Shown piece after piece: positions 5,465 through 57,564 of a DNA stretch of 57,564 bases. The stretch is from the UHGV virus genome UHGV-0182465. One strand, written 5' to 3'. Position 1 is the stretch's first letter, and every line of letters starts with the position of its first letter. The position numbers and the translations under genes were made by a program. Below the pieces are notes generated by a model, which ran no database searches, was not told the origin of the DNA, and saw nothing but the letters and a program-made list of their open reading frames with translations. The DNA comes from a virus.

Positions 5465-5470
5465 TCATTC

Positions 5471-6187
5471 CTATGATCTACCGAATAATTCTCTAATTTT
5501 TTCTATATGATTAAAATCTTCTGGCAAGAATTGCAAAGATTCGCGCTCAGTATCATCAAAACTTTTCGCATATCTACATGTGGCTGCGAACAATATAGAT
5601 TCAGTCACGCACTGGTAATACTGACAATATTGTTCGAATAGCTCATTTTTATATATGATTTTGATACTTCCATTTATCCATGTTTCGTTGTTGCCATGAA
5701 CATACTCAGACAGCTTCCTATAAATACTTGTTGCATTTCTTCTATATATTTCGGCATCACCCACTAAATCAGGAAAAAAAGCCATAATAAATCTTTTGGA
5801 ATAAACACCATTCTCTTCATCTATTATTCTTGACCATTTAATATCCCTTCTCCCATCAAGCCATTCATGCATTTCTAATTTACTAGCTGAAAAATATATA
5901 GCTCCCAGTCCCATTTCAAGTGCAAGTCTAAGTGATGAAAATGCTTGTCTATATAAACCTACAATCAAACTATAGTTTGATGATTCTAATTGGGCACTAA
6001 CAGTTTCTAAAATTCTTTTTTCTTGAGGATCTCTCAAAACATTTGACATTTCGTATATACACGAAGACAAATGATGTAATTTACCTAGAGTCTCTTTTTG
6101 AGATATAGACTGTTCGAAGACAGTTTGGGATTCAGCATTTAATTTAGTAAAATACCCTTGAATATCCATGACCCATTTAACCTCCAA
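5471..6187 (-). CDS. Hypothetical 238-aa protein, first gene of the two-gene operon, with a possible HEPN-like Rx4-6H motif
   Basis: AT-rich ORF with no recognisable enzymatic family. The motif R-KLSEYV-H (RKLSEYVH) lies within a predicted helical region. Its stop is 6 bp upstream of the NTPase start. Confidence 0.45.
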   Translation of the reverse strand: MEVKWVMDIQGYFTKLNAESQTVFEQSISQKETLGKLHHLSSCIYEMSNVLRDPQEKRILETVSAQLESSNYSLIVGLYRQAFSSLRLALEMGLGAIYFSASKLEMHEWLDGRRDIKWSRIIDEENGVYSKRFIMAFFPDLVGDAEIYRRNATSIYRKLSEYVHGNNETWINGSIKIIYKNELFEQYCQYYQCVTESILFAATCRYAKSFDDTERESLQFLPEDFNHIEKIRELFGRS

Positions 6188-14976: not shown

Positions 14977-14993
14977 GGTTTTTCGGGAGGGGT

Positions 14994-15025
14994 TTTGATA
15001 ACTTGTTTTGATAAAATTTTGATAA
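14994..15025. repeat. Three direct TTTTGATAA repeats between int and the att core, candidate arm-type or IHF-type sites
   Basis: GGTTTTGATAACTTGTTTTGATAAAATTTTGATAACC immediately 3' of the int stop. Confidence 0.35.
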
Positions 15026-15042
15026 CCGTTCGAAAACTAATA

Positions 15043-15071
15043 ATAAAAACGGGAACCACCAGGTTCCCGTT
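15043..15071 (-). terminator. Perfect 10-bp hairpin plus T-tract, terminator for the icd-type reading frame (possibly also retroregulating int)
   Basis: AACGGGAACC-acca-GGTTCCCGTT with AAAAA on the plus-strand 5' side, giving a U-tract on the minus strand directly after the icd' stop. Confidence 0.5.
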
Positions 15072-15097
15072 CTGACATAATCTGGGGGCCAGATTAC

Positions 15098-15258
15098 ATG
15101 TTCGCGATAATCGCGTCGCCAAACTCTGAACATTTCAGCAGTTTAGCGCCTTCCATCAGACGTTCAAAGTCATAGGTCACGGTCTTGGCGGCGATAGCGC
15201 CTTCCATGCCTTTGACGATCAGGTCTGCGGCTTCGAACCACTGCATATGGCGCAGCAG
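15098..15258 (-). pseudogene. icd: Phage-type copy of the 3' end of isocitrate dehydrogenase (icd), about 53 codons; att-core-adjacent fragment typical of icd-integrating lambdoid phages (e14/phage 21)
   Basis: Minus-strand translation [54 protein letters not shown] versus E. coli Icd C-terminus [54 protein letters not shown]. Homology stops abruptly at 15258 at an in-frame TAA with unrelated AT-rich DNA beyond. Confidence 0.8.
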
Positions 15259-15578
15259 TAGTTAACTAACAACATCATTACTTATTGATTTAAAAAGAAA
15301 AATAGGTGTTTTTGATATGTGGTTAATGTTTTTAGCCTAAGCCCTAACCTATTGAAATTCATTAGTATATTTTCAGTTTTGATAACTGGCTTTGAGTTTT
15401 TCAGCTCATCTGGATAGTGAATTATTAGCCAATAATACTCACTCCCTGTGAGTCGGGTTAAATATTTCGGATGTTCTAATTCATGCTTTGAAAGCATTAT
15501 AAAAATACTATAAAAAAGCCTCGAAATTCGAGGCTTTGATTGAAAGCGCCATCACTATAATATTATTTTAATAATTAT

Positions 15579-15902
15579 CTACCATGTAATTATTGCTCTT
15601 TTCCAAACCACCTTCCCTTTTTTCTCTTCTTTTACATACAGAATCTTTTTCATAATAAAATAAAAAACAAGAGAAAGCGCAATTATAGTAATATATGCAC
15701 CGATACCGAAAGATACCAGAAACACAACTAAGATTCCAAAGAGCGCTACCAGTAAAGACGTACCGATAGATACCAAATTAATTCTTTTGCGAGCGTCTCT
15801 TGATACATACCCTTTAATCTGAAATGCATGGCAACTTTGGCAGCGGTCCTCAGCAATTAAATATGCACCACAAAATGGACATTTTTCATCTTTTGTTATC
15901 AT
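15579..15902 (-). CDS. Zinc-ribbon membrane protein of 107 aa (CPFC...CQSC followed by two TM helices)
   Basis: Last gene of the low-GC GGDEF-EAL operon, with a 5-bp gap from the EAL gene. Confidence 0.45.
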   Translation of the reverse strand: MITKDEKCPFCGAYLIAEDRCQSCHAFQIKGYVSRDARKRINLVSIGTSLLVALFGILVVFLVSFGIGAYITIIALSLVFYFIMKKILYVKEEKKGKVVWKRAIITW

Positions 15903-15907
15903 TTATT

Positions 15908-16642
15908 TTAAATCTCGACATAATAGTAATCGCTCATCCACAACCTTCCCTGGCAAGCGCAATCAACAACAGAATGTACTTTATTTTTTTGTTCTATTGT
16001 CTCAACTCCCTCAACAATTACGAAATTGCAGTATGATTTTACTTCATTTAATATCTTAAATAATTTACTCTCATACTGTATTTCCCAGAAATAATCTTTA
16101 TCGATTTTTATACATTCAAAATTAAACATCTGAATAATTGTAATACTTGTTAAGCCCCTCCCAAAATCATCCAGCCATACTGGACACAATTTCGAAAGAC
16201 ACTTTAAGTCACTCATACAGCATTTAGTATTAAATTCATGAAACTCTTCGTTAATCTCAAAGGCAATGTTTTTTTGTTTTTTTAAGTAATCGCTAATATA
16301 TTTATCATTCAAGATGTAATCGCTAATTAGGCTGTCAACATTCAACGAAACTGGCTTTAACTTCAATTTAGAAGCGTCAATTTCTTCAATTGTCAATATC
16401 TGTTTATTAAACAAATCGATTTTTTCTTTGTCACTTAGTGCGCTGAAACAAAAAGCATTTTCATTAGCAAGATAACCATTAGCATTCTTTTTTTTAACAT
16501 TTTTCGTGAGAATTTCCCAAGAATGTACAGAACCATCTTTTTTGTAAGATGGTTCTAAAACAAATCTATAGGATTCTATTTCCACACTGTTCTTTATCAT
16601 TAAAAAAAACACCGGAACTAAGAATAATCCTAATCGTGTCAT
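15908..16642 (-). CDS. Stand-alone EAL-domain c-di-GMP phosphodiesterase, PdeH/YhjH-like
   Basis: LCPVWLDDFGRGLTS...NFVIVEGVETIEQKNKV...CQGRLW parallels PdeH FGPLWLDDFGTGMAN...RGVIVEGVETPEEW...AQGWFL. The EIL motif (WEILTKN) matches PdeH ELL. Confidence 0.65.
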   Translation of the reverse strand: MTRLGLFLVPVFFLMIKNSVEIESYRFVLEPSYKKDGSVHSWEILTKNVKKKNANGYLANENAFCFSALSDKEKIDLFNKQILTIEEIDASKLKLKPVSLNVDSLISDYILNDKYISDYLKKQKNIAFEINEEFHEFNTKCCMSDLKCLSKLCPVWLDDFGRGLTSITIIQMFNFECIKIDKDYFWEIQYESKLFKILNEVKSYCNFVIVEGVETIEQKNKVHSVVDCACQGRLWMSDYYYVEI

Positions 16643-16956
16643 AATTAAATATGAAAGAGAAATAGTTTAAAATGATCGATAACGATCTAATGATAGGTGA
16701 AAACTATCATACTTTGAGTATCGATCGATTATTCAAATCAAATGAAAAAAAAGGTAAAAAAAGAAACATGATTTCATTATTAAAACTATTTGGATCAGAT
16801 AGTTGCATTAAGCGAATGACTTGGGTGGCAAATGTCCAATGTAAGTTGAAAGGCGCTTGTGGTTTCGAAGAGATTAATCCTTGTTAAAACCGTGGATAAT
16901 AAACGTTCTTAAACATATATATGTATAAAATAATGAGAAAAGAAATCATATCATCT

Positions 16957-18015
16957 TCAATTATTTGGTATACAATATCCATCCTTTCCGTTACGTTTAA
17001 CTTCATATAGCATTTCATCAGCCTCTTTGATCCACTCGATGATTGATTCTTTATTTTCTGCACAAGAAATACCGATACTGACGGTACAGTACATATCTTT
17101 GTGGGAAGGCAATGAAAGATCTTTAATATTTTTTTGAATTAAATGAACCATAGCTATAACAAGCTTGCTATTACTGTTGTTAACAATTATAGCCAACTCA
17201 TCGCCACCAATTCTTGCTGGCACGTCCTTCTCACCAGCGCACTCTCGTAATATTGTTGATATACGAGATAACACCGCATCGCCTACTTCATGACCATAGG
17301 TATCATTAATTTTTTTAAAATTATCAACATCAATGAGCATAAGATATGAATGAGTTCTTTTTTTACGCGTCGCACGAAAAGCACTTTCCATTTTCTGCTC
17401 AAAAAAACGGCGATTTGGAAGATCTAGACCAGGATCCATCAGGGCCTGCTTTTCCAGTAACTCCCTTCTTTTCCTCAACTTTATAGATAAATGTCTTGAA
17501 ACTACACTCAATACAATGGGATAGCAGGTTGCCAAGGGTAAAGAAAGCAATACCGTTCGGGTACTGAATTCAATCGTATATCTGAAATCATTTGCTAACC
17601 AAACTGCCAGGAAACTAATCATCATACACGTTAATGCTGGTTTTAAAATTTGCCATCCACCAGCAGCATAGCGATCAGCTATTTGAACTGAAATTATGAA
17701 TAATGATGGAATTGGACTAACTTGCATTACGGCTATCCAGATACCAGCCCAGAATGAATCAAGTATCATATTCTTTTTTTCAGTACCCAGCATATCCTTC
17801 GACATCATGCTTGCCAGATAAGCAACCGATGGCCAGATGAGTGCATTCAGAATTAACAAGGCTATTGTTATTTTTTGATGTGACTGCTCCTGGAGGACAG
17901 AATATATAGGAAGAAAGCAAAGAACGACACCAATCTGACGTAAAAAAAATACTCGTTTAATAAACGATGAATTTCTATCAGATATGTATTTTTCATCCGG
18001 GAAATTTGTTAACAT
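16957..18015 (-). CDS. Membrane-anchored GGDEF diguanylate cyclase with an N-terminal multi-TM sensor domain and GGDEL active-site variant
   Basis: About 190 aa of TM helices, then the GGDEF domain LMLIDVDNFKKINDTYGHEVGDAVL...ARIGGDELAIIV. No RxxD I-site. GC about 32 %. Confidence 0.7.
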   Translation of the reverse strand: MLTNFPDEKYISDRNSSFIKRVFFLRQIGVVLCFLPIYSVLQEQSHQKITIALLILNALIWPSVAYLASMMSKDMLGTEKKNMILDSFWAGIWIAVMQVSPIPSLFIISVQIADRYAAGGWQILKPALTCMMISFLAVWLANDFRYTIEFSTRTVLLSLPLATCYPIVLSVVSRHLSIKLRKRRELLEKQALMDPGLDLPNRRFFEQKMESAFRATRKKRTHSYLMLIDVDNFKKINDTYGHEVGDAVLSRISTILRECAGEKDVPARIGGDELAIIVNNSNSKLVIAMVHLIQKNIKDLSLPSHKDMYCTVSIGISCAENKESIIEWIKEADEMLYEVKRNGKDGYCIPNN

Positions 18016-18437: not shown

Positions 18438-19862
18438 TCAACTTTCTAGGTCGTCAACTCGCCTAATCAAATCCTGTACCACGGTCACCAAATCGGCGAT
18501 GATGGCCGTGTAATCCACATTCATCACCCTGAATTTTTCGCCATCAATCTCCTGCTCGATGCCGGGGAAGGTATACAGGTCATCAACTTTCTCAGCTTGC
18601 TGGGCTATAAACCCACGCCTCCTGCGTGTTTCGCCCTTCATATTGAACTCGCATACCCCCAGCGAGTTAATGCGCCTGGAGGCACCTTCCTGAGATTCCG
18701 TAAAATCCTCTTTCAGCCGCACGTCTGAGCCGGTAGTCAGGACGTCCCCTTTGCCAGTGGAAATGGTGCCGCCAGCACGGAATATCCATGCGTCAGTACG
18801 TCCGAACCCATCCGCGTACAGCACAAGCCGGTGCTCAGTCCCGACCTGCTCTTCCATGTACATCTGTACGTAAGCCCCGTCCACGTCACCATAGGCCCCG
18901 CGCCCGGCCATCAATGAGCGTACCGGATTGGAGGTCAGTTGCGTTCCGATGGCTGGGTTTGCTGGCATGGTCGATGATGCTGTGATCCTCCCGTCCGTTA
19001 CCCAAAAACTTTGTACCTGCGCGTTCAGGCGGTTCTGCCTGTCGTGGATAAGGCGAGCGGTATAATCCGCACTGCTGCCGTTGTAGTGGAAGTCAATGTA
19101 AGGCGTGCTCATTGACAGCTCGATCGCCTGCGTCAGAACCTTCCCCTTTGACGTGTTATCGATGTTGCCGCCAGCTGATAACCCACCGGGCAAAGTCGTC
19201 TGGTTATCGGTCCCAATAACGAGGATGTCATCAAAGGTATCTGACGGTGACACAGTGGTCGCTCTTGAACGCTGAACCCTGAACGGTGTTCCCGAGCCAA
19301 CGGCAATTGTCCCGCCTTGCCCCTTTTTTTTGAGCAGAGCCAGATCTGAGTTCTTACCGAGAATAAAACCGGCATTATCGCTGGTTATAACCTGCGAGCC
19401 GTCGAGTTTGTTTCCTCCGGTGAGTTTTGCCAGCGCGTTAAGATCCGATGCCTTCGCCATCCCGCCTATCGCCGGCACGGTCACCTGCTTTCCGGTGATC
19501 GGGTCAGTCAGGGTGATATTGCCACTGCCGGTCAGGGCCATCGACCAGCCCTCCACCACACTACGCCAGAATGCAAATGCGCTGGCCAGCTGGTTAGCAA
19601 ACGACGAGGTACTGGCGGTTTCAGCGGTTATAATGCCGTAACTGGCGCCGGAAAATGCGGTGGTGATATGCCGGGTCAGCGTCAGCTGCGTGTCACTGTC
19701 CACGGATTTGATCGCATACAGGTCAGCACTACCGCTGCGGTAGACCACCAGAATCGACCCGGGCAGTATCCCCAGCGCCACCTGTGACCATTTTGTTGTC
19801 GCACCTGTAACCCGTGCCTGCGACGCTGCACCCGTGACGGTGCCGACTTCATACATCGCCAT
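18438..19862 (-). CDS. Side tail-fibre protein with a C-terminal intramolecular chaperone (peptidase S74-like) domain
   Basis: Gly/Ser/Thr-rich beta-repeat body. The C-terminus GFIAQQAEKV...NVDYTAIIADLVTVVQDLIRRVDDL is typical of the auto-cleaving chaperone domain, and no tfa gene follows. Confidence 0.6.
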   Translation of the reverse strand: MAMYEVGTVTGAASQARVTGATTKWSQVALGILPGSILVVYRSGSADLYAIKSVDSDTQLTLTRHITTAFSGASYGIITAETASTSSFANQLASAFAFWRSVVEGWSMALTGSGNITLTDPITGKQVTVPAIGGMAKASDLNALAKLTGGNKLDGSQVITSDNAGFILGKNSDLALLKKKGQGGTIAVGSGTPFRVQRSRATTVSPSDTFDDILVIGTDNQTTLPGGLSAGGNIDNTSKGKVLTQAIELSMSTPYIDFHYNGSSADYTARLIHDRQNRLNAQVQSFWVTDGRITASSTMPANPAIGTQLTSNPVRSLMAGRGAYGDVDGAYVQMYMEEQVGTEHRLVLYADGFGRTDAWIFRAGGTISTGKGDVLTTGSDVRLKEDFTESQEGASRRINSLGVCEFNMKGETRRRRGFIAQQAEKVDDLYTFPGIEQEIDGEKFRVMNVDYTAIIADLVTVVQDLIRRVDDLES

Positions 19863-19923
19863 AATAAAGTTCCTCCTGTATGATTATCCTTGGAAAAAGA
19901 AAAGGCCCCTGGCGGGGCCTCTG

Positions 19924-22900
19924 TTAGCTAAATGAACTGCTGTCCGTTCGGAAGGCGGTTGCGGTGATGTTCTCGACTGTGCAGGTGTAATCAATCGCGG
20001 CATTTCGACCTGTAGCCTTGATAAAGAAGCCGACATTGTTGTAGTCAGCATCCAGGCGCGCGGCAAACCGCAATTCAAAGGCCGTGGTGCCAGCTGTGAT
20101 ATTACCGGCATCGACGAAGATACGGCGGGTTACCTCCTGCCCACCAATGTTGAACGTAATATCAGAGGTATACCCCAGGCCACTGCCCGTCCCATAGGTC
20201 TGGCACACCAGGGTGCAGGCCAGAACCACTGTCATGCTATACCCCCTGTTCTGATACGCACCGTTCCGCTGTACCGTCTGGTTGCGGCGGAAGGTCAGGC
20301 TGTCGTAACCTTTTGCCACCGCAATGTCACCGATGAACGCATCCGCCTGGACAGTGCCACGGAACACGCCGCTATTCGCTTCGACCCTGCCACGAACGAT
20401 CACGTTATTGAACTGCGAAGAGCCATCCTTGGCGATACGCCAGCCTTGCGACCCGTCAACAAAGTTATTCGAGCGGATCTCGTTGCCAATCTTCGCGTTC
20501 GTGATGGAACCGTCCGCGATTTTGGTTGAGGTCAGGGAACTGTTTTTGATACGTGCAGTATCGATATACAGTTCATTGCCTTCGGCAATCATCACCGGCA
20601 CTGCCGTCGCATTGTTACGGTTAAACAGCGAGAAGCGGTCGGCGTAGAGGATCATGTCGCTCGTTTCACCATTGCTGCCCAGCGTAATCCCCGCGCCAAC
20701 ATTCTTCCCGTTAACCGTCTCAACCTTCATCGACCACAGCGAACTCACCGTACCATTCACATCCGCCACGGTTTTAGCGGTGTTTTGAACGGAAGCGCTG
20801 AGATCCCCGACACTGGATGTCAGGGTCGTCTGCTGCGTTGCCAGCGCCTCCAGTGCCGTTGCATGCGTCTGCTGGGTACTGGTGATACTGGCCACCGATT
20901 TAATCGTGTTGTCCAGCGTCGTCTGGTTTTTGATGTTGGCGGCCGCCTGCGCGTCAATCTGCGACTGAAGCGAGGTATTCAGGCTGGCCTGTGTGCTCTG
21001 GCTGTCGCTCAGCGTTTTCGCCATGTTATCGACGCGGGAGTTGGCGTTATCCACTTTCGTGGCCAGTGCCGTCTGCTGCTGCGCCTGAGCGGTAATTTTC
21101 CCTTCGGCATCCGTTACGCGCGCCGTCAGGCCGCTCACGGCGCTCGCCGTCGCGTCAGAGGCATCCTGTGCCGCTTTCGCATCGGTAACATCCGTGATGA
21201 CCAGATCGTCGATATACAGTGAATAGCCAGGGGTACCGTTGCCGGTGGCGCCACGGGTGGAGATCCAGACCACCGCGCGTGTTCTGCCCGCCCCGTTGTT
21301 ACTGGCGATACCCGTGAATTTCACCCACTTATCGCGCGCGCCCAGAGAGGCTTCGCTGACAGTGACCGCCGCCTGCCACGCATTTTGCCCGGCAGCATTC
21401 TGCGACTGGATACCGACCAGCGTTGTCCACCCGGATGAGGGCGCCTGATCCGCCGGCATCATGGCCCAGAACTCAAACCGGAACTTCGCGTCCTCACGGA
21501 CTGACTGCCAGGTGCCAAGCTGTTTATCACTGTTGCCGCTGTTGTTCTCATCCCGTCTCAACTTCAGGCTCTTACCGCCGGTGAATTTCTGAGACACCAC
21601 CACAACGGCGGTGCCGTTCCCGCCCAGCACCTGGCCATCGCTGTAGCTTTCAAACGTACCGTCAACCCACGGATTAGCTCCCTGAGTGCGGATGGTATTG
21701 ATGGTGCTGGTCAGCGACGTGATGCTCTGCGACTGGCTGGTGATGGTGTTTTCCACCTGGCTTACGCGACCGGTCAGTGAACTCACCGCGGACGTGTCAG
21801 CCTTTTTACCCAGCTCCGTATTCATCGTGGTCAGGCTGTTCTGCAGACTGGTGAGCTGCTGCGACTGCGAATCCAGTTTACCCTCGGCAGACGTCATCCG
21901 GGTGGTCAACCCGGTGACAGCGCTTTGCTCTGCTTTCTGACTGACCGCCGCATTCGTGACGGCCAGATCGCCGCTGAGTTTCGTCAGCTGCTGCGCCTGG
22001 GTGGTGATAGCCCCTTCCGCAGCGGTGACGCGGGTATTCATCTGTGAGATGGCCCCGGCATTAGCAGCGATATCCTTTTCATCCGTAACATCGAGAACAT
22101 GGAAATCATCGAAATACATGGCCCCCGCGCTGAGGAAGGTCGTCAGCTGGAAACTGGCCGTCGTGGTCTTCGTGGCTTTCCAGTCAAACGTTACCAGTTG
22201 CCAGCCAGAACTAAACGGTCCGTAGTTTGAGCCAACCAGCAGGCCAGTGCTGTCAGCCACACGAAACTTCGTGTTACCCGCATCTTTAATCGTGGTCCCC
22301 GGGTCCTGCTTCGCCCATACCCCCATGCGGTAGGTGCGACCCTGGGTGATACTGATTTCCTGTCCGACCAGGTTCGACTGGCCGGCGGACATTTTCAGCG
22401 CCTTGTTACCCGAGTGCGGAACCTGTAAATCGGCCACCGTCGCGGTACTGCTCCAGCCGGTAAAGCCCGCCGCGCCGCGCTCAAAACTGCCGTTGACAAT
22501 GAGGTTGCCCGGCATTTTCCCGCTGGCGTCAATATCCGCTGCTGTCTGGCTCAGGCTGTTACTCAGTTGCGTCAGAGAATCCCCCTGCGCACTGAGTGTT
22601 TTGCCCTGCTCCGTGACCTGGTTCTGCAGGGTGTTCATCGCGCTTGCGTCCGCTTTTTTGTTCACGTTCGCATTCGTCGTGGCCAGATCGCTGCTGAGTT
22701 TAGTCAGCGCGCTGTTGGCCGCCGCGATGTCATTTCCCTGCTGCGTCACCTTGCCCTGCAGCTGCGTCACCGCTGTCGTGTCAGCCTTTTTACTCACCGT
22801 ATCGTTTGTCGACCGGAGGCTGTTCTCCAGCGAGGTGGTCCGCGTGCCGATGCTGCTGAGCGTATCGCCCTGCTGGCTAACCGTGGTGGTCAGTGAATCC

Positions 22901-25900
22901 ACCGCTTTTGCAGTCGCATCTGCGGTTTTCTGCGCACTGTTCGCCGCCGTCACGTTACGCATATGCCAGTCGGCAGCGTACCAGACGGTGCCGAACGGGC
23001 TGCTCTGATTAACCTGCAGGAACGGCCGCAGCAAGCTGGTATCGGATGGCACCGTAAAGCGCCAGGTGGCTCGTTTCCACGCGGTGGTGGTCTTGGTGTT
23101 ACCCCCGGACGCTTTCGCTTCGATGCCACCGGTGGCGGTGGTGGCCCGACCGATATAGAAGTTAAAGTCAGCGCTGCCGGTACCACACGCTACCAGAGCA
23201 GACATTTCGAAAACGTCGCCCGGCGTCACGGCGATGTTGTTAATTTTTGGCACATGGTCTCGCCCGGCCAGCCGGACGGCATACCTGAACGGGCAGTCAG
23301 CCGGCACACCTGCAGCAGTGGTCTCCACCACGTCATAACCCATGCGGTCATACGCCGGATCAAATGACGGGTTTGGGATGTAATCATCCCCGGCAGCATT
23401 CCCGGCGTTCACCGCCGCCGTCAGGCTGACGATGTTGCTGTTGGCTGCCGTGAGGCCTGCCTCGGTTTTCTCCACCCGGCCAGTCAGCGCGTTAAGCGCC
23501 GTCTGATCCGCTTTGGTGTTGACCTTATCGGTGGTGCTGCTCAAATCGCCCTGCAGCTTCGTGATAGCCTGCCCCTGGGAGGTGATTTTGCCTTCCGCAC
23601 TGGTGACCCGGCTGGTGAGATCACTCACCGACTGCGCGCTGGCCTTTTGTGCCACGTTGTTGTTGGTGGTGTTCAGGCTGTTCTGCAGATTCGTGATGCT
23701 CTGAGACTGCGCGGTCAGTTGCCCCTCGGCATTCGTCACCCGACTGGTGAGGCTGTTAATGGCCGATGTGTTCGCGGTAATACCGCTGGCCGCATCATCC
23801 GGACTCGGTGACCAGTCGGTCATCACGGTCCCGGTTTCCAGCTGAGGGCGGCAGAGCCAGACTTCTTTGTCGGCAGACGTCGCGCTTTCCAGACGCGCGG
23901 CAATCAGCCGTTTGGTGCCACTGGTGGCAGGAATAACCCATTTCACCCAGTAACGCGCCCATGCGGTGGTCAGTTTCGTGACCGCCTTGCCGTCACCGGC
24001 CCCGCCTTTAACGCCCTGGCTGGTTTCCGTGGTGGTGGTGTTCGACGGGTTATAGAAATAACTCGCCATCTCCTGCCCGTCATAAGCCCCTTTCGCATAG
24101 AAACTGAATACAAATTCCGTACGCCCGGTAACGTCCAGCGTCTGTTCATCCAGCTGGGTATAACCGGATGCACCTTTCGCCAGCCGGGTGTAGGCCACGC
24201 GGTCGCCCAGATAGGTCTCTGTGGCGTGGCGGCTGCTCCATCCCTCCAGTGTGTTCGCATTGCGGATAAGGTTGGTCCCGCCCACGGCCAGGGAGGAAAA
24301 GTTGTTTTCCAGGTTCGTCAGCGCGCTGCTTTGCGTGGTCAGATCCCTGCCATGCTGTTCAACGGTGTTCTGCAGGCTCTGAAGCGCCGTTGCATCAGCC
24401 TTCTTCGCCACATTGCTGTTGGTCGTGTTCAGGCTGTTCTGCAGGCTGGTCAGGCTGTCTCCCTGCGATCTCAGGCTGCCTTCGGTAGCCGTCACGCGGG
24501 TCGTCAGATTCGTCAGCGCGCTGGCATCGGCCTTGCCGCTGATATCCTTTCCTAGTTGCGTCACATCTGACTGCAGTTTCGTGATCGCGCTGCCCTGAGA
24601 CGTAATATTCTTCCCGTTCTGCGTGACTGACGCGGACAGACTGGAAAGCGCCTGCGCATTCGCATCGGCGGCATCGAGCGCCGCTTTCGCATCGGTCACG
24701 TCAGTGATGATCAGATCATCAATCAGGAAGGCGTCACCCAGGCGAACTTTTGGTGTGTTCGGGATGGAGATCCTCACCATTGCCTGTTTCAGCGCGGTTC
24801 GGTTGTTGGTCAGATAGCCACTGACTTTTGTCCAGTTGTCCACCGACAACTCGGAGACTTTTACGTTCAGGCCAGGCCACGACCAGCCATTGGCAGAATC
24901 CTGGAAGGAAAATCCGAGCACCATATAAACGGTCGGATCGGCGGTCGAGCCAGCCGGCAACTTAACCCACGCCTCCACGTAATAGACCGCGTTATCGCGA
25001 ACCTGCATGCCTGAAAAGATATGGGTATCGTTATTATCCGTCGCGTTCGGGTTGTACTCCGTACTGCGCGTAACACGCAGGCTTTTGGTCCCGCTGTGCG
25101 CAGCTTCACTGGTGATAACGGCGCGGGCATTACTGAGAACATCGCCGACGGCATAGGATTCAAAACTGCCGTCCGGCAGTACGTTGGCTCCCCGTGTCGC
25201 CTGCTGCTTCAGCGATGTATTCAGGCTGGTCAGGCTGTCGGCCTGGCTACGGATATCCTTTTCAGTCTGGGTAACCCGGTTGGTCAGTGAACTGACCGCC
25301 GACGCATCAGCCTTCTTCGCCACATCGCCTTTGACCCCTTCCAGCGCGTTATTCAGCGCCGTGATGGATTGCCCCTGCGATGTCAGGGTGTTCCCCTGGT
25401 TCGTCACCGTCCCGGTCAGAGACGAAACAGCATCGCTGGTCGCCTTAATGTTGGTTTCATCGGTGATATCAAACACCCGGACGGAATCGAGCCAGATTTC
25501 ACCGTTTGTCGGATGAGAATAAAGTTTGAAGTTCTGCCCGTCCGCGCCGGCAGCCGTCAATCCGGTTTCCCAGGTGATGGTTTGCCAGTCAGTGGTCAGC
25601 GTGACTGTTTTATCCTCATACGTACTGTCCGTCTGGCCGATTTTGTTCTGGCGACGGATCAGCAGACTCATCGCGCCGGAAACACCTTTGGCCTTCACCA
25701 CCACCCGGTACTTGCGCTGGCCATTCAGTGGCACCGGCTTGTTGTTGTTGGAGAAAATGCCTGGGCTGGTAGTGGTCGTCCGGTTCAGCCGGACCCCCGC
25801 TTTCCCGTCCCCGAAATCGCCAAAGGTCACACCGGCTGGATACTGAATATCCCAGGCAGTGCTGCCCTGCAGAAAATCAAAGTTCGGGATCAGGTTGTCG

Positions 25901-28900
25901 CCGGCGTTGCGGGTGGCCGTCAGCACATTCGCCAGATTTGTCAGCTGCTGGCTCTGTGTGGTCAGTTTCCCTTCCGCCTCTGTCACCCGGTTATCGACCG
26001 AAGTCAGTGCCGTTGCATCGGCCTTCTTCGACACATTGCTGTTGGTCGTGTTCAGGCTGTTCTGCAGGTTCGTCAGCTGCTGGCTTTGTGAGGTGATGGC
26101 CCCTTCCGCTGTGCTGACCCGGCTCGTCAGTCCGGTCACGGCGCCGGCGGTGGCATCGATGTCCACCCGGTCGGTAACGTCAGTGACGTAAAAGTCATCG
26201 AAGTAGCGGCTGCCGCTAATCAGATAGTTACTCAGCGTCACCGGCAGGCTGGCTGTCTCCGTCGCTTTCCAGCGACCGGAAATCAGGGTCCAGTTTGTCC
26301 CCACCTTACCGCTGTTGTATGGACGCTCAAAAACCGGCTGGCCGGCAGAGTTGCCGATCCGCAGCTTGTTGTTCCCCGCGCCATTATCCGTCGTCGCTCC
26401 GGGTTCCTTGACCCACACCCCGATTTCATAGGTTCGCCCCTGAACAAACGGGATGTATTGCCCCGGAGTCACATTCCCCGGATCAACCTTCAGCGCCCGC
26501 GTCCCGCTATGAGGAACGGAAACCTCCACCACACTGGTCGCGGTTGACCGCCCGGTGTAACCATCCAGCCCGCGTTCAAACGAGGGATTCACGACTAGGT
26601 TACCCGGTATCTGCCCGCTGGCATCGATATCTGCCGCGACCTGCGAGAGGCTGTTCGACAGGTTCGTCAGCGAATTGCTCTGGCTCTCCAGCGTTTTGCC
26701 CTGCTGCGTCACTTTCGTGTCGAGCGTGGCCAGCGCAGTCGCATCGGCTTTCTGCGCCAGCGCTTTATCGGTATTAGCCAGATTTCCGGTCAGTTTCGTG
26801 ATGGCGCTGTTCGCAGCAGTCAGGTCGTTGCCCAGCTGTGTAACGGTATTGGTCAAATCCTGCACCGCTGTCGCATCAGCCTTTTTGGCCACTGCGGCAT
26901 TGGTGGTTGCCAGCCCGTTTTCCAGCTGAGTTGTCCGGTTGCCGGTCGAGGTCAGCAGATTACCCTGTTGCGTCACGGTGGTGGTCAGGGAGTCAACCGC
27001 CGCCGCCGTGGCATCCGCAGTATCCTGAACCTTTTGCGCCGCTGTCACATTTCGCATATGCCAGTCCGTAACGAACCATACGGTGCCATACGGGCTGTTC
27101 TGCGAGATCTGCAGGAACGGGCGGATATAACCCCTGTCCACCATCGCCTGCGTGACCTTGAAGCGCCAGGTGGTTCTCTGCCAGGTCGCGGAGGGGGATT
27201 TCCCGCCCCCCGCCATGAGTGGCGCACCGGTGCTCGTATCTGGCCGAACGGCGGTGCCAACATACAGATTAAAATTCGCCGTGCCGGCGCCGCAGGCAAC
27301 CAGTGCGCTGATCTCAATCACATCGTTAAGCGTGGCCGGGAACGCGGCAAAGTTAGGATGGTGATCCCGGCTGGCAATTCGGGCCGCATAACCATACGGG
27401 CAGCCCGGCGGGACCTCCTCAGCCGTCGTGGCTACCACGCTGAACCCCATCTGGTCATACGCCGGGTCAAACGTCGGGTTGGGAATTAAATCCCCGCCTG
27501 ATGCGTTTCCGGCCCGTACAGCGGATTTCAGCGAGGTAATGTTGGCGTTAGCCGCCGTCAGCCCGGACTCCGTCTTCTCCACTCGTCCGGTTAGCGAGTT
27601 CATCGCCGTCTGATCCGCTTTGCTGGCCACGTTCGCGTCTGTCTGCGTCAGCGCATTCCGGAGCTGGGTGATGTTCTGCGAATTGCTGACCACATCGTTG
27701 CCAATCTGGCTGACATTCGAGCTGAGCACGCCGGCTGCGTTTGCCAGCGCGGAAACCCCGAGACCGGAGTACATCTCAGCAACCTTGTCTGACAGCTTCA
27801 GACCCAGGTTGATATACGCCTGGCCGGTCCACTGATTCACCAGAAACTCAACGGTGTTCCAGCCGGCTTTCAGTTCAAAACTGACGGTATTCCAGCTGGC
27901 GTTACCCCAGGCGACCTGCACCCCATTCACAAATATGGCGCCGGTATCATCAAAAACCCTGGCGCCGGGCGCCAGTGTGATGGTGGTATCTGCGGCCACT
28001 TTCACCTGGCAGGAATACAGCGCGATCAGATAGCTGCCGGCGGATGTAAAGTCCAGTTTGGCCGCGTCGGCCACCTCATCCACGACCGTTGGCGCCACGG
28101 CGCGAACATCGCTGAATGACGGGACTGTCCCGGCGGTAGCCAGCTGCACAGGATAGAGTCGACGGGACCAGCGATTCGGCTGGCCATTGACCAGCTGATT
28201 CGACAGGCTGGTGATGCTGTCAGTATTGCTGCGAATATCCTGGCCGTTTTGCTCTACCTGCTGCGTTAAGGCAGTGACCGCAGCCGCTTCGGCTTTCTTC
28301 GCCAGCGCGGCATTTGTCGTGCCCAAATCGCTCGTCAGTTTCGTGATGGACTGACCCTGGCTGGTTATCCTGTCACCCTGCCGGGTAACAACAGACTGCA
28401 GCCCGCTCAGCGCCTCATTCGTACCAGCCAGGCCCGTTTCCGTCTGGCCAACCCGGTTAGTGAGCGATGTTAACGCGGCGCCCTGCGATGTCAGCGTGGC
28501 GCCCTGTTGCTCAACTTTCTGCGTCAGGGACGTCAGCGCGGCCGCATCGGCTTTTTTCCCGAGGCTGGTTTCCAGTCCACCGATACGGCTCGCCTGCGCG
28601 CTCTGCTCTGTCGTCAGAGAACTCAGTTCACCAGAAACAGCAGCTTTGTTGTCGTTAAACTGCGTCTGCAGGGACTCTCTGGCCTTAACTTCCGCCGAGA
28701 TGGCGGTAACGCGCGCGGTTTTTTCCTGGTACAGCAGCCCGGAGGTGACTTTCTCCAGATCGCTCCCATCATAGGAGCCACGCATCTGCGCCGCCAGCGT
28801 GCTGCGTGCCTGCGCTTCGGCGGTCAGCGCGTTACTCAGCGTACTGCGCACATCCTGCAGAGCCGCCGTACTGGCGCCGGGTGCTGGCCGGCCAACGGCG

Positions 28901-31900
28901 ATCCAGTCGAATTCGATAAAGTTGCTGGCATCCTGCTGGTTCGTCAGGTCCAGGCGAATACGATCAATGTTCCCTGTCCACGGAATATCACGCACCGTCA
29001 GGGTTGCCACCCCATCGGCATATTCCGGCTCAGCAACAATGTATCGCTTCGTGTTATTGAAGTTTTCGCCGGCAGACACCCAGCGGATCTCACCCGCCCA
29101 GACGGGTTTGCCGGTTTTACGAAAGCGCAGCATGATGAAACGGTACGCCGCACCATCGACAGCCAGCCCGCCAGGAGAGGTAATGTACGGATCGGTGGCG
29201 CTGTCCGCCGGGCGTAACCAGCCATCCTGTGACACACCCGGTACGCCGGCGCTGCCGGTCCAGCCCTCGGTCGTCTGATTGTTGAAATGCCAGATAACCT
29301 GCGAATCGAACTGGATATTAGCGCCGGCAGCGAGGCTGGACATTTCCCGCGCCAGATTTTCATCGGCGGTCTTCATCACCTGAGTCAGGCTCTCGATACT
29401 CGCCTCAATCCCCTGCGTTGCCGCCAGCAGTTCATCAGCGGCCTGTGCGGCCTTCGCGTTAACATCGGCGATACGATCCGCGGTCTCCTGCTTCACCGCA
29501 TTGGTCAGCGTGGTGTTGACCTGAGACAGCGACTGCTTCAGGCCATTTTCGGCAGTCTTTATCTGCGCATTCAATGCGGCATCGCCGTCGGCCAGCGTTT
29601 TGCTGACCCTGGCAATCTCCAGGTCGATGGTGGCGTTGATTTCCGCAGCCGTATCAGTGACTGACTGTCTGACCTGGGTGATGCTGTCGGTCAACGACTT
29701 GTTCACAGTTGCGATCTGCTTGTTCGCATCTGCGACGGCGGATTTTGCCTCCTGAACACCTTTGTTTGCCTGAGCCAGACCAGAATCGAGAGCCTCATTG
29801 ACCGAGGTGATCTCATCCGTGATGGTTTTATTCACGGCGGAGATCTTCCCGTCAACATCAGCAGTGATGTTTTTCGCCGATGCATCAATATCCTGGCTGA
29901 CCTGCTTCGCCTGGTCTTCAGCTTCCTTACGCAGAGCTTCAGCGGTCTGCTCCAGTTCCTGCTGCGTATTGCGGATACCTTCCTGCGTTTCGCTAATGGT
30001 GCGCTCAGTTTCCTTCCAGGCTTCGGTCCCTTTAACCGCCTCCGTCAGCTTCTCGTAGTAGTCGTCAAAGTTATCGCTGGCCATCCCCTGGACCCAGTTG
30101 GTCCACGGGCTTTCATTGCCCAGACGATCCACAAGGCGCGCCCGATACCAGAATTCTGCGCCCATACTGAGGCCCATCTGCTGATAGCTTTTCCCCGGAT
30201 AGGCCACGTCTGATAACAGCATCGGCGCACTGCCATCCTGATTTTTGCTGTACTGTAGTTCCGTGCGCAGCGTATCCCCCGAGCCGGTCGGGAATTCCCA
30301 GCTAACCTGGACCCCATGAACCAGCGAACGGGTTGCCAGCGCCAGCGGCGGAAGTGGGGCACCAGACTTACCGGTCAGCTCGGTTTCTTTCGAGATCCCC
30401 CATACGGACGCGATATCCTGCGCGTTAATCGCCCGCACACGAACAACGTAGCGACCGGTATAGATACCATCGACCTCAAACCGCGTATTGCCGGTGCGCG
30501 GCAGGTTAATCCAGTCACCATTGTTCTGACGCCACTGCATTTCATACGCAATCGCATTTTTCACCGGCGACCACGTGGCAACCAGGGTGGTGATGCCAAT
30601 CCCCTGCGACACCCGGTAGAGGCTGGAAATGGTAATGTCGTCCGGTGCCTCCTGTCCCCGTGGGGGAACAACGGTCACAGGACGGTCTTCGATCACCGCG
30701 CCATCATCCACCCGGGGAAACTTGTTCGGGTTATACGGCAGGCCGTTAATAGTGACCGTGCCATCGTTATTGTTCACAACGCGCTTAACCCTGAATTGCT
30801 GAATGGCCAGGTCTGACTGATCCAGAATCCATCCCGCCTCCGCCTGCGGTGCCGGGTTATACTCCTGCTCTACCGTAACAATACGGTCCTGCACACCCTG
30901 AACTTTACGCCCCTGCGACTTTCCGTCCGGCAGGTTAATGATGAGCGTATCCCCGGCTTTTGCCGCGACAGCGCGGTCGAGAGTAATCCTTTTTCCGGAG
31001 ACCGCCGCCACACGACCGCCGTTCTGCCGGCCAGCCATAGGGGCATTGTTGATGCCGATAACTTTGCCGACTCGGGGAATACGCCCCTCCATCCCCGTTT
31101 TAAACTCAACACCATTGTCATCGCGGTTTGTCTCGATGGCGTAGGCGCCGTGGCGCTGCGCCTCGGATTCCCGTGTACAGCCAATGCGGGACAGCTCGAT
31201 AGTGTTAAACCCGAAGCGGTCTGCAACCTCCTGCGAATAGACGCTGGCTTGATCGTCCTGATAGTTATTCTGTGGGTTGCTGTAAGTGACGATGGCCGCG
31301 CTATAGTTGGTCCGCTCGGACGTGCTGGAGAACGTGAAGGAGCCGACAATATTCGATTTGTTGAAAACAAAATCGGGGTCCATCTCACGCGGCATATCGG
31401 CATCAACCGACAGCAGATTATTCGACCAGCTAATCATGCCCCGAAAAATGTTCGCGAGATCCATTAATACGGTCCAGGCGTCAGTCCGCTGGGATATATA
31501 GAGATCGCAGAGATAACGGGCCTCTTTTCCGCCGGCACCATCTGAGACCGGCGCATCGCAATACTGGCCAATCTGATACAGGGTCCATTTATCCACCTGG
31601 TCGGACGAAATACGCTTTCCAAGTCCATAGCGTTTGTTCAGCACCAGATCGTAAAAAATCCAGGCGGGGTTATTCGACCAGGCCCACTTGAAGGTCCCGT
31701 CCCAGCTTCCGCTGTAGGTACGTTCGACAGGGTCATAGTTCGACGGTACGCGAATGACCAGCCCCTTTGCCTTGACCGTCACGGTCGGTGTCCGGCCATC
31801 AAAAAGCGTTGAATCGAACTGAACGAACAACAGCGCGGTGTTCGGATAGCGCAGTTTGGCGTCAACGATTTCCGTTATCGACTCGATACGACTCACGTCC

Positions 31901-32520
31901 GCCGTTTTGTTATTATTCTTATTCTCAGTCAGACGGCGAACGCGGATCTGCCAGCCGGAGTTTGCCCGCGGCAAATCGATGCGGTAGCTGCGCTCATAGC
32001 CAGTGTTAGCTATGCCATCGACGGTATCGCGGCCATATTCGGTATACGTGCTGCCGTCTGTTGAAACATCGATGGCGAACTCAATGCGGTAACCATCTTT
32101 GCCACCGCTGTCACGCAGGCTGTAGACCCCGTTCGGAAATTTAATACGCAGGCGAACAGCCGACAGCTGCGTGTTGTTGATCGCCTTTACCCACGGGGTG
32201 CCAGACTTGATTTCCGTGCTGACGCTGATTTCGTTTTCGACCGCCGGGAAACCCTGAATGTAATCCTGGTCAACCAGACCACTGCGCCACTCCCACGTCA
32301 CGCCCGGAAAATTTTCATGGCCATCGGCATCGAGCAACGGCGTACCGTCGAGGCAAATATCCTGACCGGTAAACTGACCGGCAATTTGACCTTCTGACAG
32401 TGCCAGCAAGATTTTCATATAGGCGACCGAGGCAATTTCCGTCCCGCGATTCTGCCCGTTATCCTTGCTACCACCGTTATTTTTAGCGCCAGCGATTCCT
32501 TTTATTTCAGCCATTCTCAA
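19924..32520 (-). CDS. J: Giant J-like central tail fibre / host-specificity protein of 4,198 aa, with a ~3,100-aa insertion of repeated coiled-coil and jelly-roll (CBM-like) modules inside a lambda J framework
   Basis: Residues 1 to ~820 are colinear with lambda J, for example LRYPNTALLFVQFD...IRVPSNYDPVERTYSGSWDGTFKWAWSNNPAWIFYD versus lambda CYPNTALVGVQVD...LQVPSNYNPQTRQYSGIWDGTFKPAYSNNMAWCLWD. The last ~330 aa match the J C-terminus, with VAAANRIAFID-like and GTLRAEKIVGDIV-like blocks. The middle holds at least 7 modules beginning N(L/P)IPNP(T/S)F(D/E)...GW and ending ...YFDDFxVTDVTD, separated by SKKADATAL...LT..V.. heptad stretches. Confidence 0.8.
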   Translation of the reverse strand: MRMAEIKGIAGAKNNGGSKDNGQNRGTEIASVAYMKILLALSEGQIAGQFTGQDICLDGTPLLDADGHENFPGVTWEWRSGLVDQDYIQGFPAVENEISVSTEIKSGTPWVKAINNTQLSAVRLRIKFPNGVYSLRDSGGKDGYRIEFAIDVSTDGSTYTEYGRDTVDGIANTGYERSYRIDLPRANSGWQIRVRRLTENKNNNKTADVSRIESITEIVDAKLRYPNTALLFVQFDSTLFDGRTPTVTVKAKGLVIRVPSNYDPVERTYSGSWDGTFKWAWSNNPAWIFYDLVLNKRYGLGKRISSDQVDKWTLYQIGQYCDAPVSDGAGGKEARYLCDLYISQRTDAWTVLMDLANIFRGMISWSNNLLSVDADMPREMDPDFVFNKSNIVGSFTFSSTSERTNYSAAIVTYSNPQNNYQDDQASVYSQEVADRFGFNTIELSRIGCTRESEAQRHGAYAIETNRDDNGVEFKTGMEGRIPRVGKVIGINNAPMAGRQNGGRVAAVSGKRITLDRAVAAKAGDTLIINLPDGKSQGRKVQGVQDRIVTVEQEYNPAPQAEAGWILDQSDLAIQQFRVKRVVNNNDGTVTINGLPYNPNKFPRVDDGAVIEDRPVTVVPPRGQEAPDDITISSLYRVSQGIGITTLVATWSPVKNAIAYEMQWRQNNGDWINLPRTGNTRFEVDGIYTGRYVVRVRAINAQDIASVWGISKETELTGKSGAPLPPLALATRSLVHGVQVSWEFPTGSGDTLRTELQYSKNQDGSAPMLLSDVAYPGKSYQQMGLSMGAEFWYRARLVDRLGNESPWTNWVQGMASDNFDDYYEKLTEAVKGTEAWKETERTISETQEGIRNTQQELEQTAEALRKEAEDQAKQVSQDIDASAKNITADVDGKISAVNKTITDEITSVNEALDSGLAQANKGVQEAKSAVADANKQIATVNKSLTDSITQVRQSVTDTAAEINATIDLEIARVSKTLADGDAALNAQIKTAENGLKQSLSQVNTTLTNAVKQETADRIADVNAKAAQAADELLAATQGIEASIESLTQVMKTADENLAREMSSLAAGANIQFDSQVIWHFNNQTTEGWTGSAGVPGVSQDGWLRPADSATDPYITSPGGLAVDGAAYRFIMLRFRKTGKPVWAGEIRWVSAGENFNNTKRYIVAEPEYADGVATLTVRDIPWTGNIDRIRLDLTNQQDASNFIEFDWIAVGRPAPGASTAALQDVRSTLSNALTAEAQARSTLAAQMRGSYDGSDLEKVTSGLLYQEKTARVTAISAEVKARESLQTQFNDNKAAVSGELSSLTTEQSAQASRIGGLETSLGKKADAAALTSLTQKVEQQGATLTSQGAALTSLTNRVGQTETGLAGTNEALSGLQSVVTRQGDRITSQGQSITKLTSDLGTTNAALAKKAEAAAVTALTQQVEQNGQDIRSNTDSITSLSNQLVNGQPNRWSRRLYPVQLATAGTVPSFSDVRAVAPTVVDEVADAAKLDFTSAGSYLIALYSCQVKVAADTTITLAPGARVFDDTGAIFVNGVQVAWGNASWNTVSFELKAGWNTVEFLVNQWTGQAYINLGLKLSDKVAEMYSGLGVSALANAAGVLSSNVSQIGNDVVSNSQNITQLRNALTQTDANVASKADQTAMNSLTGRVEKTESGLTAANANITSLKSAVRAGNASGGDLIPNPTFDPAYDQMGFSVVATTAEEVPPGCPYGYAARIASRDHHPNFAAFPATLNDVIEISALVACGAGTANFNLYVGTAVRPDTSTGAPLMAGGGKSPSATWQRTTWRFKVTQAMVDRGYIRPFLQISQNSPYGTVWFVTDWHMRNVTAAQKVQDTADATAAAVDSLTTTVTQQGNLLTSTGNRTTQLENGLATTNAAVAKKADATAVQDLTNTVTQLGNDLTAANSAITKLTGNLANTDKALAQKADATALATLDTKVTQQGKTLESQSNSLTNLSNSLSQVAADIDASGQIPGNLVVNPSFERGLDGYTGRSTATSVVEVSVPHSGTRALKVDPGNVTPGQYIPFVQGRTYEIGVWVKEPGATTDNGAGNNKLRIGNSAGQPVFERPYNSGKVGTNWTLISGRWKATETASLPVTLSNYLISGSRYFDDFYVTDVTDRVDIDATAGAVTGLTSRVSTAEGAITSQSQQLTNLQNSLNTTNSNVSKKADATALTSVDNRVTEAEGKLTTQSQQLTNLANVLTATRNAGDNLIPNFDFLQGSTAWDIQYPAGVTFGDFGDGKAGVRLNRTTTTSPGIFSNNNKPVPLNGQRKYRVVVKAKGVSGAMSLLIRRQNKIGQTDSTYEDKTVTLTTDWQTITWETGLTAAGADGQNFKLYSHPTNGEIWLDSVRVFDITDETNIKATSDAVSSLTGTVTNQGNTLTSQGQSITALNNALEGVKGDVAKKADASAVSSLTNRVTQTEKDIRSQADSLTSLNTSLKQQATRGANVLPDGSFESYAVGDVLSNARAVITSEAAHSGTKSLRVTRSTEYNPNATDNNDTHIFSGMQVRDNAVYYVEAWVKLPAGSTADPTVYMVLGFSFQDSANGWSWPGLNVKVSELSVDNWTKVSGYLTNNRTALKQAMVRISIPNTPKVRLGDAFLIDDLIITDVTDAKAALDAADANAQALSSLSASVTQNGKNITSQGSAITKLQSDVTQLGKDISGKADASALTNLTTRVTATEGSLRSQGDSLTSLQNSLNTTNSNVAKKADATALQSLQNTVEQHGRDLTTQSSALTNLENNFSSLAVGGTNLIRNANTLEGWSSRHATETYLGDRVAYTRLAKGASGYTQLDEQTLDVTGRTEFVFSFYAKGAYDGQEMASYFYNPSNTTTTETSQGVKGGAGDGKAVTKLTTAWARYWVKWVIPATSGTKRLIAARLESATSADKEVWLCRPQLETGTVMTDWSPSPDDAASGITANTSAINSLTSRVTNAEGQLTAQSQSITNLQNSLNTTNNNVAQKASAQSVSDLTSRVTSAEGKITSQGQAITKLQGDLSSTTDKVNTKADQTALNALTGRVEKTEAGLTAANSNIVSLTAAVNAGNAAGDDYIPNPSFDPAYDRMGYDVVETTAAGVPADCPFRYAVRLAGRDHVPKINNIAVTPGDVFEMSALVACGTGSADFNFYIGRATTATGGIEAKASGGNTKTTTAWKRATWRFTVPSDTSLLRPFLQVNQSSPFGTVWYAADWHMRNVTAANSAQKTADATAKAVDSLTTTVSQQGDTLSSIGTRTTSLENSLRSTNDTVSKKADTTAVTQLQGKVTQQGNDIAAANSALTKLSSDLATTNANVNKKADASAMNTLQNQVTEQGKTLSAQGDSLTQLSNSLSQTAADIDASGKMPGNLIVNGSFERGAAGFTGWSSTATVADLQVPHSGNKALKMSAGQSNLVGQEISITQGRTYRMGVWAKQDPGTTIKDAGNTKFRVADSTGLLVGSNYGPFSSGWQLVTFDWKATKTTTASFQLTTFLSAGAMYFDDFHVLDVTDEKDIAANAGAISQMNTRVTAAEGAITTQAQQLTKLSGDLAVTNAAVSQKAEQSAVTGLTTRMTSAEGKLDSQSQQLTSLQNSLTTMNTELGKKADTSAVSSLTGRVSQVENTITSQSQSITSLTSTINTIRTQGANPWVDGTFESYSDGQVLGGNGTAVVVVSQKFTGGKSLKLRRDENNSGNSDKQLGTWQSVREDAKFRFEFWAMMPADQAPSSGWTTLVGIQSQNAAGQNAWQAAVTVSEASLGARDKWVKFTGIASNNGAGRTRAVVWISTRGATGNGTPGYSLYIDDLVITDVTDAKAAQDASDATASAVSGLTARVTDAEGKITAQAQQQTALATKVDNANSRVDNMAKTLSDSQSTQASLNTSLQSQIDAQAAANIKNQTTLDNTIKSVASITSTQQTHATALEALATQQTTLTSSVGDLSASVQNTAKTVADVNGTVSSLWSMKVETVNGKNVGAGITLGSNGETSDMILYADRFSLFNRNNATAVPVMIAEGNELYIDTARIKNSSLTSTKIADGSITNAKIGNEIRSNNFVDGSQGWRIAKDGSSQFNNVIVRGRVEANSGVFRGTVQADAFIGDIAVAKGYDSLTFRRNQTVQRNGAYQNRGYSMTVVLACTLVCQTYGTGSGLGYTSDITFNIGGQEVTRRIFVDAGNITAGTTAFELRFAARLDADYNNVGFFIKATGRNAAIDYTCTVENITATAFRTDSSSFS

Positions 32521-51473: not shown

Positions 51474-51486
51474 AGAAAGTAGGCAT

Positions 51487-51760
51487 TCTAGGTAGTAACG
51501 AAACGAAGGAACTCCTAATAGTCCGAGCTACCGATTTACCAGGAAGCATTCACTTTTGCCGTTACGTTCTATAAACATAGAAGGGCAACCGCAAAAGTAA
51601 ACCTGCCATAAATCTTAAAAATGTTTAGTGGCAGTGTGGTGCCGGGTGCCTCCCGGTGAGCATTTGGTCAGCCACCATGACTCGCGCATACGGTTTAGCA
51701 GATAATAACAATGCTGTTTACGCCCCTCCGCATAGGGGGATTCACCACGCCGACAATCTA
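51487..51760. repeat. Copy A of a ~280-bp direct repeat with conserved blocks and variable spacers, candidate structured ncRNA or regulatory module
   Basis: Shares with copy B the blocks GTAACGAAA(C/G)GAAGG, CCTAATAGTCCGAGCTACCGATTTACCA, CCGTTACGTTC, CAGTGTGGTGCCGGGTGCCTCCCGGTGAGCAT and CGCCCCTCCGCATAGGGGGATTCACCAC. Internal stems: GTAACG/CGTTAC, CCGGG/CCCGG and CCCCT/AGGGG. Confidence 0.5.
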
Positions 51761-57057: not shown

Positions 57058-57564
57058 TACTTGTTAGGTGACATGTTCAAGCGTTTAATGCCACTTTTCG
57101 CTAACCCATGCTCATGTTTAGATTGATCTTTTCACCACAAAGGACGAAATCCGCAATCACAGGGATACAGTTATTTTTGTGGTGATCAACACCGTTGATA
57201 AGAAACGTTGCTACCTCAGGTGTACACTCGAATCTATTAAGATGGTCAGTACATAAGTGTCAACACCCGGTCAGATGCTTTTGTAAGTATCCCTGCAAAA
57301 CGAATCATCAATTTTTAAAGGACCTCTGACGCTCCAGATTCCGCTCTTGGCGCAGAGCGGACTGGCACGTGGAATTCACAGCACGAAGCGGGTAGATCAA
57401 GTTACTGTCTGGCTAACATCAAGCGAGGAGCAGACATTTAACCGGGCTGTGATTCAGCTCATTGTATTCTTGATCGCGAAGTTAGATTATCGATAAGGTT
57501 CAAGCAGAAACTATGATGAAACAGTTTGTTGGTTAGACCCAAATGAGATTAGAACAAGGAAAAT

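Follow-up and report, generated by a model that had tools for sequence, protein, structure and literature searches.

Lambdoid integration into icd, by phages that carry a duplicate of the 3' end of the gene, has been textbook biology since e14 and phage 21. In the viral DNA analyzed here (57,564 bp at full length, hereafter the window), such a 3'-end copy, denoted icd', is bordered by int on one side and by cargo and tail genes on the other, an arrangement that the original prediction had read as an attP-type junction, arising either from prophages in tandem or from one genome written across its attP. The locus thus raises the question of what this junction represents, and whether the window is a chromosomal region holding two prophages or a single phage genome.

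The icd' copy and its integration module

The features that bear on this question are collected in Table 1. As predicted, a copy of the icd 3' end with int on one side and tail and cargo genes on the other was found; it measures 164 bp, has its stop codon at 15094-15096 on the minus strand, and matched Pfam Iso_dh over profile positions 301-348 of 348. When full-length Klebsiella Icd was used as a tblastn query, residues 362-416 were the only part encoded in the window (E 2e-29), and no icd 5' part was detected anywhere in it, which agreed with the proposed absence of a host icd 5' portion. The description of the right flank also held, in that AT-rich cargo (30% GC over 15258-16950) is followed there by a Peptidase_S74 tail fibre gene and a J-like gene of 4198 aa.

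Table 1. Coordinates of the att region, the adjoining genes and the record ends in the window
Feature	Position	Strand	Remarks
xis, excisionase, 81 aa	13623..13868	+	Pfam PF07825 Exc, E 1.4e-10
int, lambda-type tyrosine integrase, e14 IntE type, 375 aa	13849..14976	+	Pfam Arm-DNA-bind_1 and Phage_integrase
Whole predicted attP, 394 bp	14992..15385		from one outermost candidate arm-type site to the other; positions as in phage 21 attP
P' arm, three tandem candidate arm-type Int sites, (G/A)TTTTGATAA	14992-15001, 15005-15014, 15016-15025	+	
Intrinsic terminator downstream of the icd' stop	15046..15073	-	12-bp stem, 4-nt loop, T-tail
icd', phage-borne icd 3' end, last 53 codons and stop	15094..15257	-	homology block, also present in attB, including the crossover
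Interval that must hold the strand-exchange (core/overlap) site	15167..15257		homology boundary 15257 to first separating site 15166
P arm	15310..15385	+	candidate arm-type site TTTTGATAA at 15377-15385 (+120); one-mismatch TTTTGATAT at 15310-15318 (+53)
AT-rich cargo adjoining attP	15282..18015	-	71-aa ORF, 107-aa ORF, EAL, MASE2-GGDEF (Pfam)
End of the late operon	18438..32520	-	Peptidase_S74 tail fibre 18438-19862; 4198-aa J-like tail tip protein 19924-32520
End/start join, circular-permutation point	57505..57564 -> 1		no gap, no overlap

Some details of the original description did not hold. Two or three substitutions relative to E. coli Icd had been counted and used as an argument that the copy is phage-borne; over the 53 homologous residues icd' departs at four positions from the copies in e14 and phage 21, which are of E. 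coli type, and at none from the Icd of Klebsiella, the host genus (a comparison over 54 aa counts five on the e14 side and four for phage 21, its first residue being non-homologous and also differing from the e14 side). Since icd' is identical to Klebsiella Icd, the amino-acid differences from E. coli Icd reflect the host genus and not phage carriage, and the substitutions were rejected as a mark of a phage-borne copy. Judging from the aligned copies, the phage-type identity of icd' is visible only at synonymous sites (T at 15166 and A at 15142, as in the attL copies described below). The homology to chromosomal icd, which had been placed up to an in-frame TAA at 15258, ends at 15257, and the TAA is located at 15262-15264. 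Among 5,426 complete E. coli genomes, 4,041 had an icd matched by the 15094-15257 stretch, at approximately 80% identity.

Int gave Pfam matches to Arm-DNA-bind_1 (E 5e-35) and Phage_integrase (E 2e-16), and the assembly collection lists the exact protein in 11,104 blocks; an 81-aa Exc gene was called in all the loci retrieved with identical Int. The xis gene lies directly upstream of int and overlaps its start by 20 nt. The two genes had been described as a convergent pair; both are on the plus strand and transcribed toward the att core, so that they converge on icd' and not on each other. Three tandem repeats are located between the int stop codon and the terminator, and a further copy is found beyond the homology boundary, the repeats starting at -264, -251, -240 and +120 from that boundary. 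The exact 9-mer TTTTGATAA occurs five times in the 57.5-kb window, with four of the copies lying within 400 bp of the core. These repeats are candidate arm-type sites, a role assigned from the positions of the corresponding repeats in phage 21. The +120 site was kept at every attR locus and in each of the four circular records described below; one of the latter (L118) has an otherwise unrelated P arm, yet it retained this site.

The closest known relatives of the module are those of e14 and phage 21. e14 of E. coli K-12 (IntE/XisE) has the same xis-int arrangement and an Int that is 84% identical to that of the window, both being 375 aa in length. Its attL carries three P' arm-type sites identical to those of the window (GGGGTTTTGATAACTTnTTTTGATAAAATTTTGATAACCGTT) and a terminator hairpin after the icd 3' copy, and both elements use an identical target, at the same icd codon. 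e14 has been reported to provide the 3' end of icd, a remnant of ~163 bp staying behind (PMC6379469). The two elements differ in that ymfD, ymfE and lit are located between the att site and intE in e14, whereas int directly abuts the P' arm in the window, and in that e14 is a 15-kb defective remnant, whereas the window phage looks complete at 57.6 kb. They also differ in cargo (GGDEF/EAL in the window) and in host (E. coli for e14, Klebsiella for the window phage).

The phage 21 virion genome (OL657228.1 / M61865.1) shows the same order as the window, namely xis, int, three arm subsites, terminator, icd pseudogene and cargo. Its icd homology ends at the same base as that of the window, its record annotates the three P' sites as attP subsites P1P2P3 and the terminator at the same place, and its repeat TTTTGGGGAA is positioned at -265, -252, -240 and +120, in good agreement with the positions of TTTTGATAA in the window. 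The Int proteins are 57% identical. The cargo of phage 21 is sitABC, and the host is also different. The presence of TTTTGATAA and not TTTTGGGGAA points to an arm specificity of the e14 type rather than the 21 type. The minimal attP of phage 21 reportedly spans 366-418 bp, and the 394-bp span predicted here agrees with that range. On sequence grounds, and in all five features tested, the integration module is of the e14/phage-21 type, icd-targeting and lambdoid, and its Int and Xis would presumably act in integration and excision at the icd' junction, as the closed circular records with the attP junction described below indirectly suggest.

Integrated forms and the crossover interval

The attP-type nature of the junction was borne out by the integrated forms of related phages, because the attL and attR break points fell exactly at the two edges of the icd block. 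On the attL side, an identical Int was followed by a 416-aa icd, rluE, nudJ, mnmA, hflD, purB and phoPQ in nine of the ten places listed. Homology to the window stopped at 15257 at nine attL loci; the Icd encoded at each of them is 416 aa long and agrees with icd' at every one of its last 53 residues. On the attR side (10 chromosomal or metagenomic loci), the genes for the J-like protein, the tail fibre and GGDEF came before that of an identical EAL protein; beyond the EAL gene, nine of the ten places listed showed a 50-aa icd remnant, after which host genes or other non-phage DNA began. At nine of these loci the match to the window broke off at 15092, and in L025, in which the icd remnant is partly deleted, at 15197. 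The block common to attP, attL and attR is therefore 15092-15257 (166 bp), over which attL and attR share more than 97% identity. An unoccupied attB with host-type downstream sequence was found in a K. oxytoca genome (L037), which was the sole Klebsiella attB in a scan of GTDB genomes that returned mostly distant species.

Three sites within the block vary among the copies. At 15166, T was found in the window and in eight of the nine attL copies (L015 has C), and C in eight of the 10 attR copies (not L025 and L028); at 15142, A was found in the window and in all nine attL copies, and G in seven of the 10 attR copies. The alleles of the window at these two positions form the pattern that a true attP would show. 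The attR copies were mixed at 15247, where all nine attL copies have C, and T was found in the window, in three of the 10 attR copies and in both viral contigs; the four circular attP records carry C instead. This pattern weakly suggests that the crossover may take place 3' of that base, within 15167-15246.

Two of the integrated loci were peculiar in their own right. One attR locus (L022) is decayed, window position 48179 being joined directly to 21049 with the loss of the head and most of the tail genes, and it carries an IS3-type transposase after the icd remnant. At another chromosomal locus (L017, 11129-21128, on a 1.26-Mb contig), an identical Int, P' arm and 50-codon icd' are joined to another element and not to the host icd; this neighbor carries SRAP, TIR-domain, umuDC and resolvase genes, and the locus looks like a true array of elements integrated at icd.

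By homology with e14 and phage 21, the following course of events can be proposed. Int would bind the arm and core sites, presumably together with host bending proteins, and strand exchange with the identical chromosomal icd sequence would take place inside the icd homology, at 15167-15257. After integration, the 5' part of the host icd would be fused to the phage icd 3' copy and its terminator, so that a full-length Icd of 416 aa with an unchanged protein sequence would be regenerated and served by the phage terminator, while the displaced host 3' end would become the 50-codon remnant beyond the cargo genes. Xis together with Int would carry out the reverse reaction, regenerating the attP junction of the window.

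Genome unit, circular records and accessory regions

The join of the window ends was examined at loci retrieved through the exact Old-like protein (4-1773), which was found in many assemblies. In eight assemblies, seven of which are NCBI genome assemblies including two complete chromosomes of ~5.3 Mb, the final 60 bases of the window ran directly into its initial 60, with identity at all 120 positions in each of the eight loci (L001-L008), with the BLAST break at locus position 9997/9998 corresponding to window 57564/1. Upstream of the Old-like gene, all eight carried the right end of the window (DinI, LexA-like, DUF968, holin, lysozyme, HNH, TerS and TerL). Because the ends join without gap or overlap, the window is exactly one genome unit of 57,564 bp. 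No terminal overlap, a signature of a circular contig, was found in the window, and it contains no host gene. The comparison between left and right modules that had been proposed as a check for tandem copies gave a negative result, since self-BLAST of the window revealed no module duplicated between its early and late parts. The only repeats found were those internal to the J-like gene, which encodes diverged repeats (e.g., 22502-23518 vs. 26597-27625, 65% identity), and a diverged direct duplication of ~0.3 kb (51475-51786 and 53297-53609, 73% identity) between the lysis and DUF968 genes. The window starts 3 nt ahead of an ATG, just upstream of the Old-like gene, and not at the expected cos, which we take to lie in the HNH/TerS region near 47-48 kb; this points to rotation or cutting of the record by software.

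The int/P'-arm/icd' junction of the window was also present in four closed circular PLSDB "plasmid" records from K. pneumoniae and K. michiganensis (NZ_CP030728.1, NZ_CP129204.1, NZ_CP116219.1 and NZ_CP130687.1). Three of them matched the window on through the EAL cargo and have GGDEF/EAL cargo in common with it, with 94-98.5% DNA identity across the junction, and NZ_CP130687.1 has a different P arm and P-arm cargo. None of the circular icd-phage records was identical to the window. The closest, NZ_CP030728.1 (98.5% across the junction), is colinear with the circularized window but differs from it in its accessory region and by a 15.7-kb satellite-like insertion in the terminase gene and a group II intron; it lacks the IS903-like insertion and the Old-like gene of the window. 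These circular Klebsiella "plasmid" records are excised icd phages, a form of this phage type that is regularly captured in assemblies. The class of phage-plasmids was considered and rejected on the ORFs scanned: the replication genes are lambda-like (DnaT-like O and lambda P), integration at icd is seen in many chromosomes, and no rep/par genes are annotated in the colinear NZ_CP030728.1.

The exact junction was absent from three further collections, a gapped pattern containing both the P and P' arms having no match in IMG/VR, GTDB representative genomes or JGI metagenome contigs, and an exact 38-mer over the P-arm/core boundary retrieved from IMG/VR only two attR-type provirus ends (L029 and L030) and no attP. 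Among INPHARED phages, only Klebsiella phage Kp4865-4 has the same xis/int/P' arm; its record stops at window position 15091 and, given that end, is a prophage-boundary record. The cargo side was found in no INPHARED phage record.

The cargo next to attP includes genes for a MASE2-GGDEF diguanylate cyclase (16957-18015, 352 aa) and an EAL-domain protein (15908-16642, 244 aa), the latter possibly degenerate in view of its weak EAL score. Many Klebsiella prophages retain such genes for cyclic-di-GMP turnover (GGDEF, EAL) at their attR end, and similar EAL genes are also carried on large Klebsiella plasmids. A second AT-rich region (33-40% GC) forms an accessory island between the replication genes and dinI, consisting of 4-1773, which encodes a P2 Old-like ATPase-TOPRIM protein (PADLOC "Old", E 5e-209), and 3854-6187, with genes of 536 aa (a faint ORC/CDC6-like match) and 238 aa. 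The island is probably anti-phage defense cargo, and related prophages have other genes at this spot.

The window further contains an IS903-like insertion sequence at 1994-3048, which encodes a 307-aa DDE transposase (PF13737/PF01609), has 18-bp terminal inverted repeats (GGCTTTGTTGAATAAATC) and is bordered on both sides by a 9-bp target duplication (TTTATTATG); all eight related loci lack it, joining 1994 directly to 3049. The terminase large subunit gene is intact in the window. The 15.7-kb element in NZ_CP030728.1 (34710-50447) lies within that gene, at a point corresponding to window ~46081-46099, and carries its own integrase, three AlpA, a DUF5906 primase, capsid, protease, portal, HNH, TerS and TerL genes. 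The alignments on its two flanks overlap by 19 bp in window coordinates, which may mark a duplication of the insertion site, and the element resembles the helper-embedded satellites (HE-PICIs) described previously (PMC10111431).

Origin of the junction

All these observations taken together, the junction is very probably the ordinary attP of an e14/phage-21-type temperate Klebsiella phage, and the window one complete, circularly permuted genome, which reads straight through attP because it is written in circular order and not as an integrated prophage. Of the two possibilities originally put forward, circular permutation thus stood, while the tandem arrangement lost ground to the contiguous ends, the lack of any duplicated module and the circular records. 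Which physical process gave the record is a separate matter, because a circle or concatemer, a loop made by the assembler and a slice of a double lysogen would be expected to yield the same sequence.

A tandem double lysogen, with two copies of one phage head-to-tail at icd and the window cut from copy 1 into copy 2, draws some plausibility from the array at icd in the 1.26-Mb contig, and the internal att of such an array would equal attP in sequence. Phage 21 lysogens of e14-carrying K-12 are, moreover, a classical case of tandem integration at icd. An arbitrary slice of an array, however, would not give exactly one unit with zero overlap or gap, the window contains neither host DNA nor a second copy of any module, and circular records of the same phage type exist. 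We thus consider this origin very unlikely, and a same-phage double lysogen cut to exactly one unit contrived. Still less can be said for two different icd-specific lambdoid prophages in tandem, one represented by the early module (~6.6-15 kb) and the other by the late module (18-57 kb), for which only the general plausibility of polylysogeny at icd, as in L017, speaks. The side with DinI, LexA-like, DUF968, lysis and terminase genes runs directly into the Old-like, replication, cI/cro, exo, xis and int genes, the same late-to-early continuity is seen within single prophages in the eight assemblies, the two halves make up exactly one full gene set with nothing duplicated or missing, and NZ_CP030728.1 is colinear with the whole; the probability of this arrangement is close to nil.

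The remaining alternative is that the phage was present only in integrated form, and that the assembler closed the circle through the icd repeat shared by attL and attR. At 166 bp and more than 97% identity, that repeat exceeds typical k-mers and is of the kind known to cause looped graph paths, and the opening of the window at an arbitrary point, not at cos, would fit such an origin. Against it stand the coherent attP alleles of the window, with T at 15166 and A at 15142 as in most attL copies and T at 15247, which three of the 10 attR copies share along with both viral contigs, as well as the four independent complete assemblies that give closed circles with an identical int/P'-arm/icd' junction. 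Spontaneous lambdoid induction, furthermore, makes real circles and concatemers common in sequencing libraries. The icd gene has been called a well-known prophage site, and attP and attB have been measured, with attP reads, after induction of an E. coli icd prophage (PMC10111431). An assembly artefact is accordingly judged highly improbable, and even if the circle had arisen in this way, the sequence would still be that of a real attP.

An attP with a duplicated icd 3' end is in itself already known biology. It is unlikely, though conceivable, that this phage type persists in Klebsiella cultures as an abundant extrachromosomal circle. If so, either spontaneous excision and replication would have to be unusually high or the carrier state would be pseudolysogenic; such a circle could explain the closed "plasmid" deposits in at least four complete-genome records, and would mean that the GGDEF/EAL cargo is amplified. 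For annotation, reading the junction as the ordinary attP means that the window should be treated as one complete, circularly permuted phage genome and not as a chromosomal region with two prophages, that the att sites of a very common Klebsiella prophage type are delimited (attP at 14992-15385, shared block at 15092-15257), and that several Klebsiella "plasmid" records are excised icd phages.
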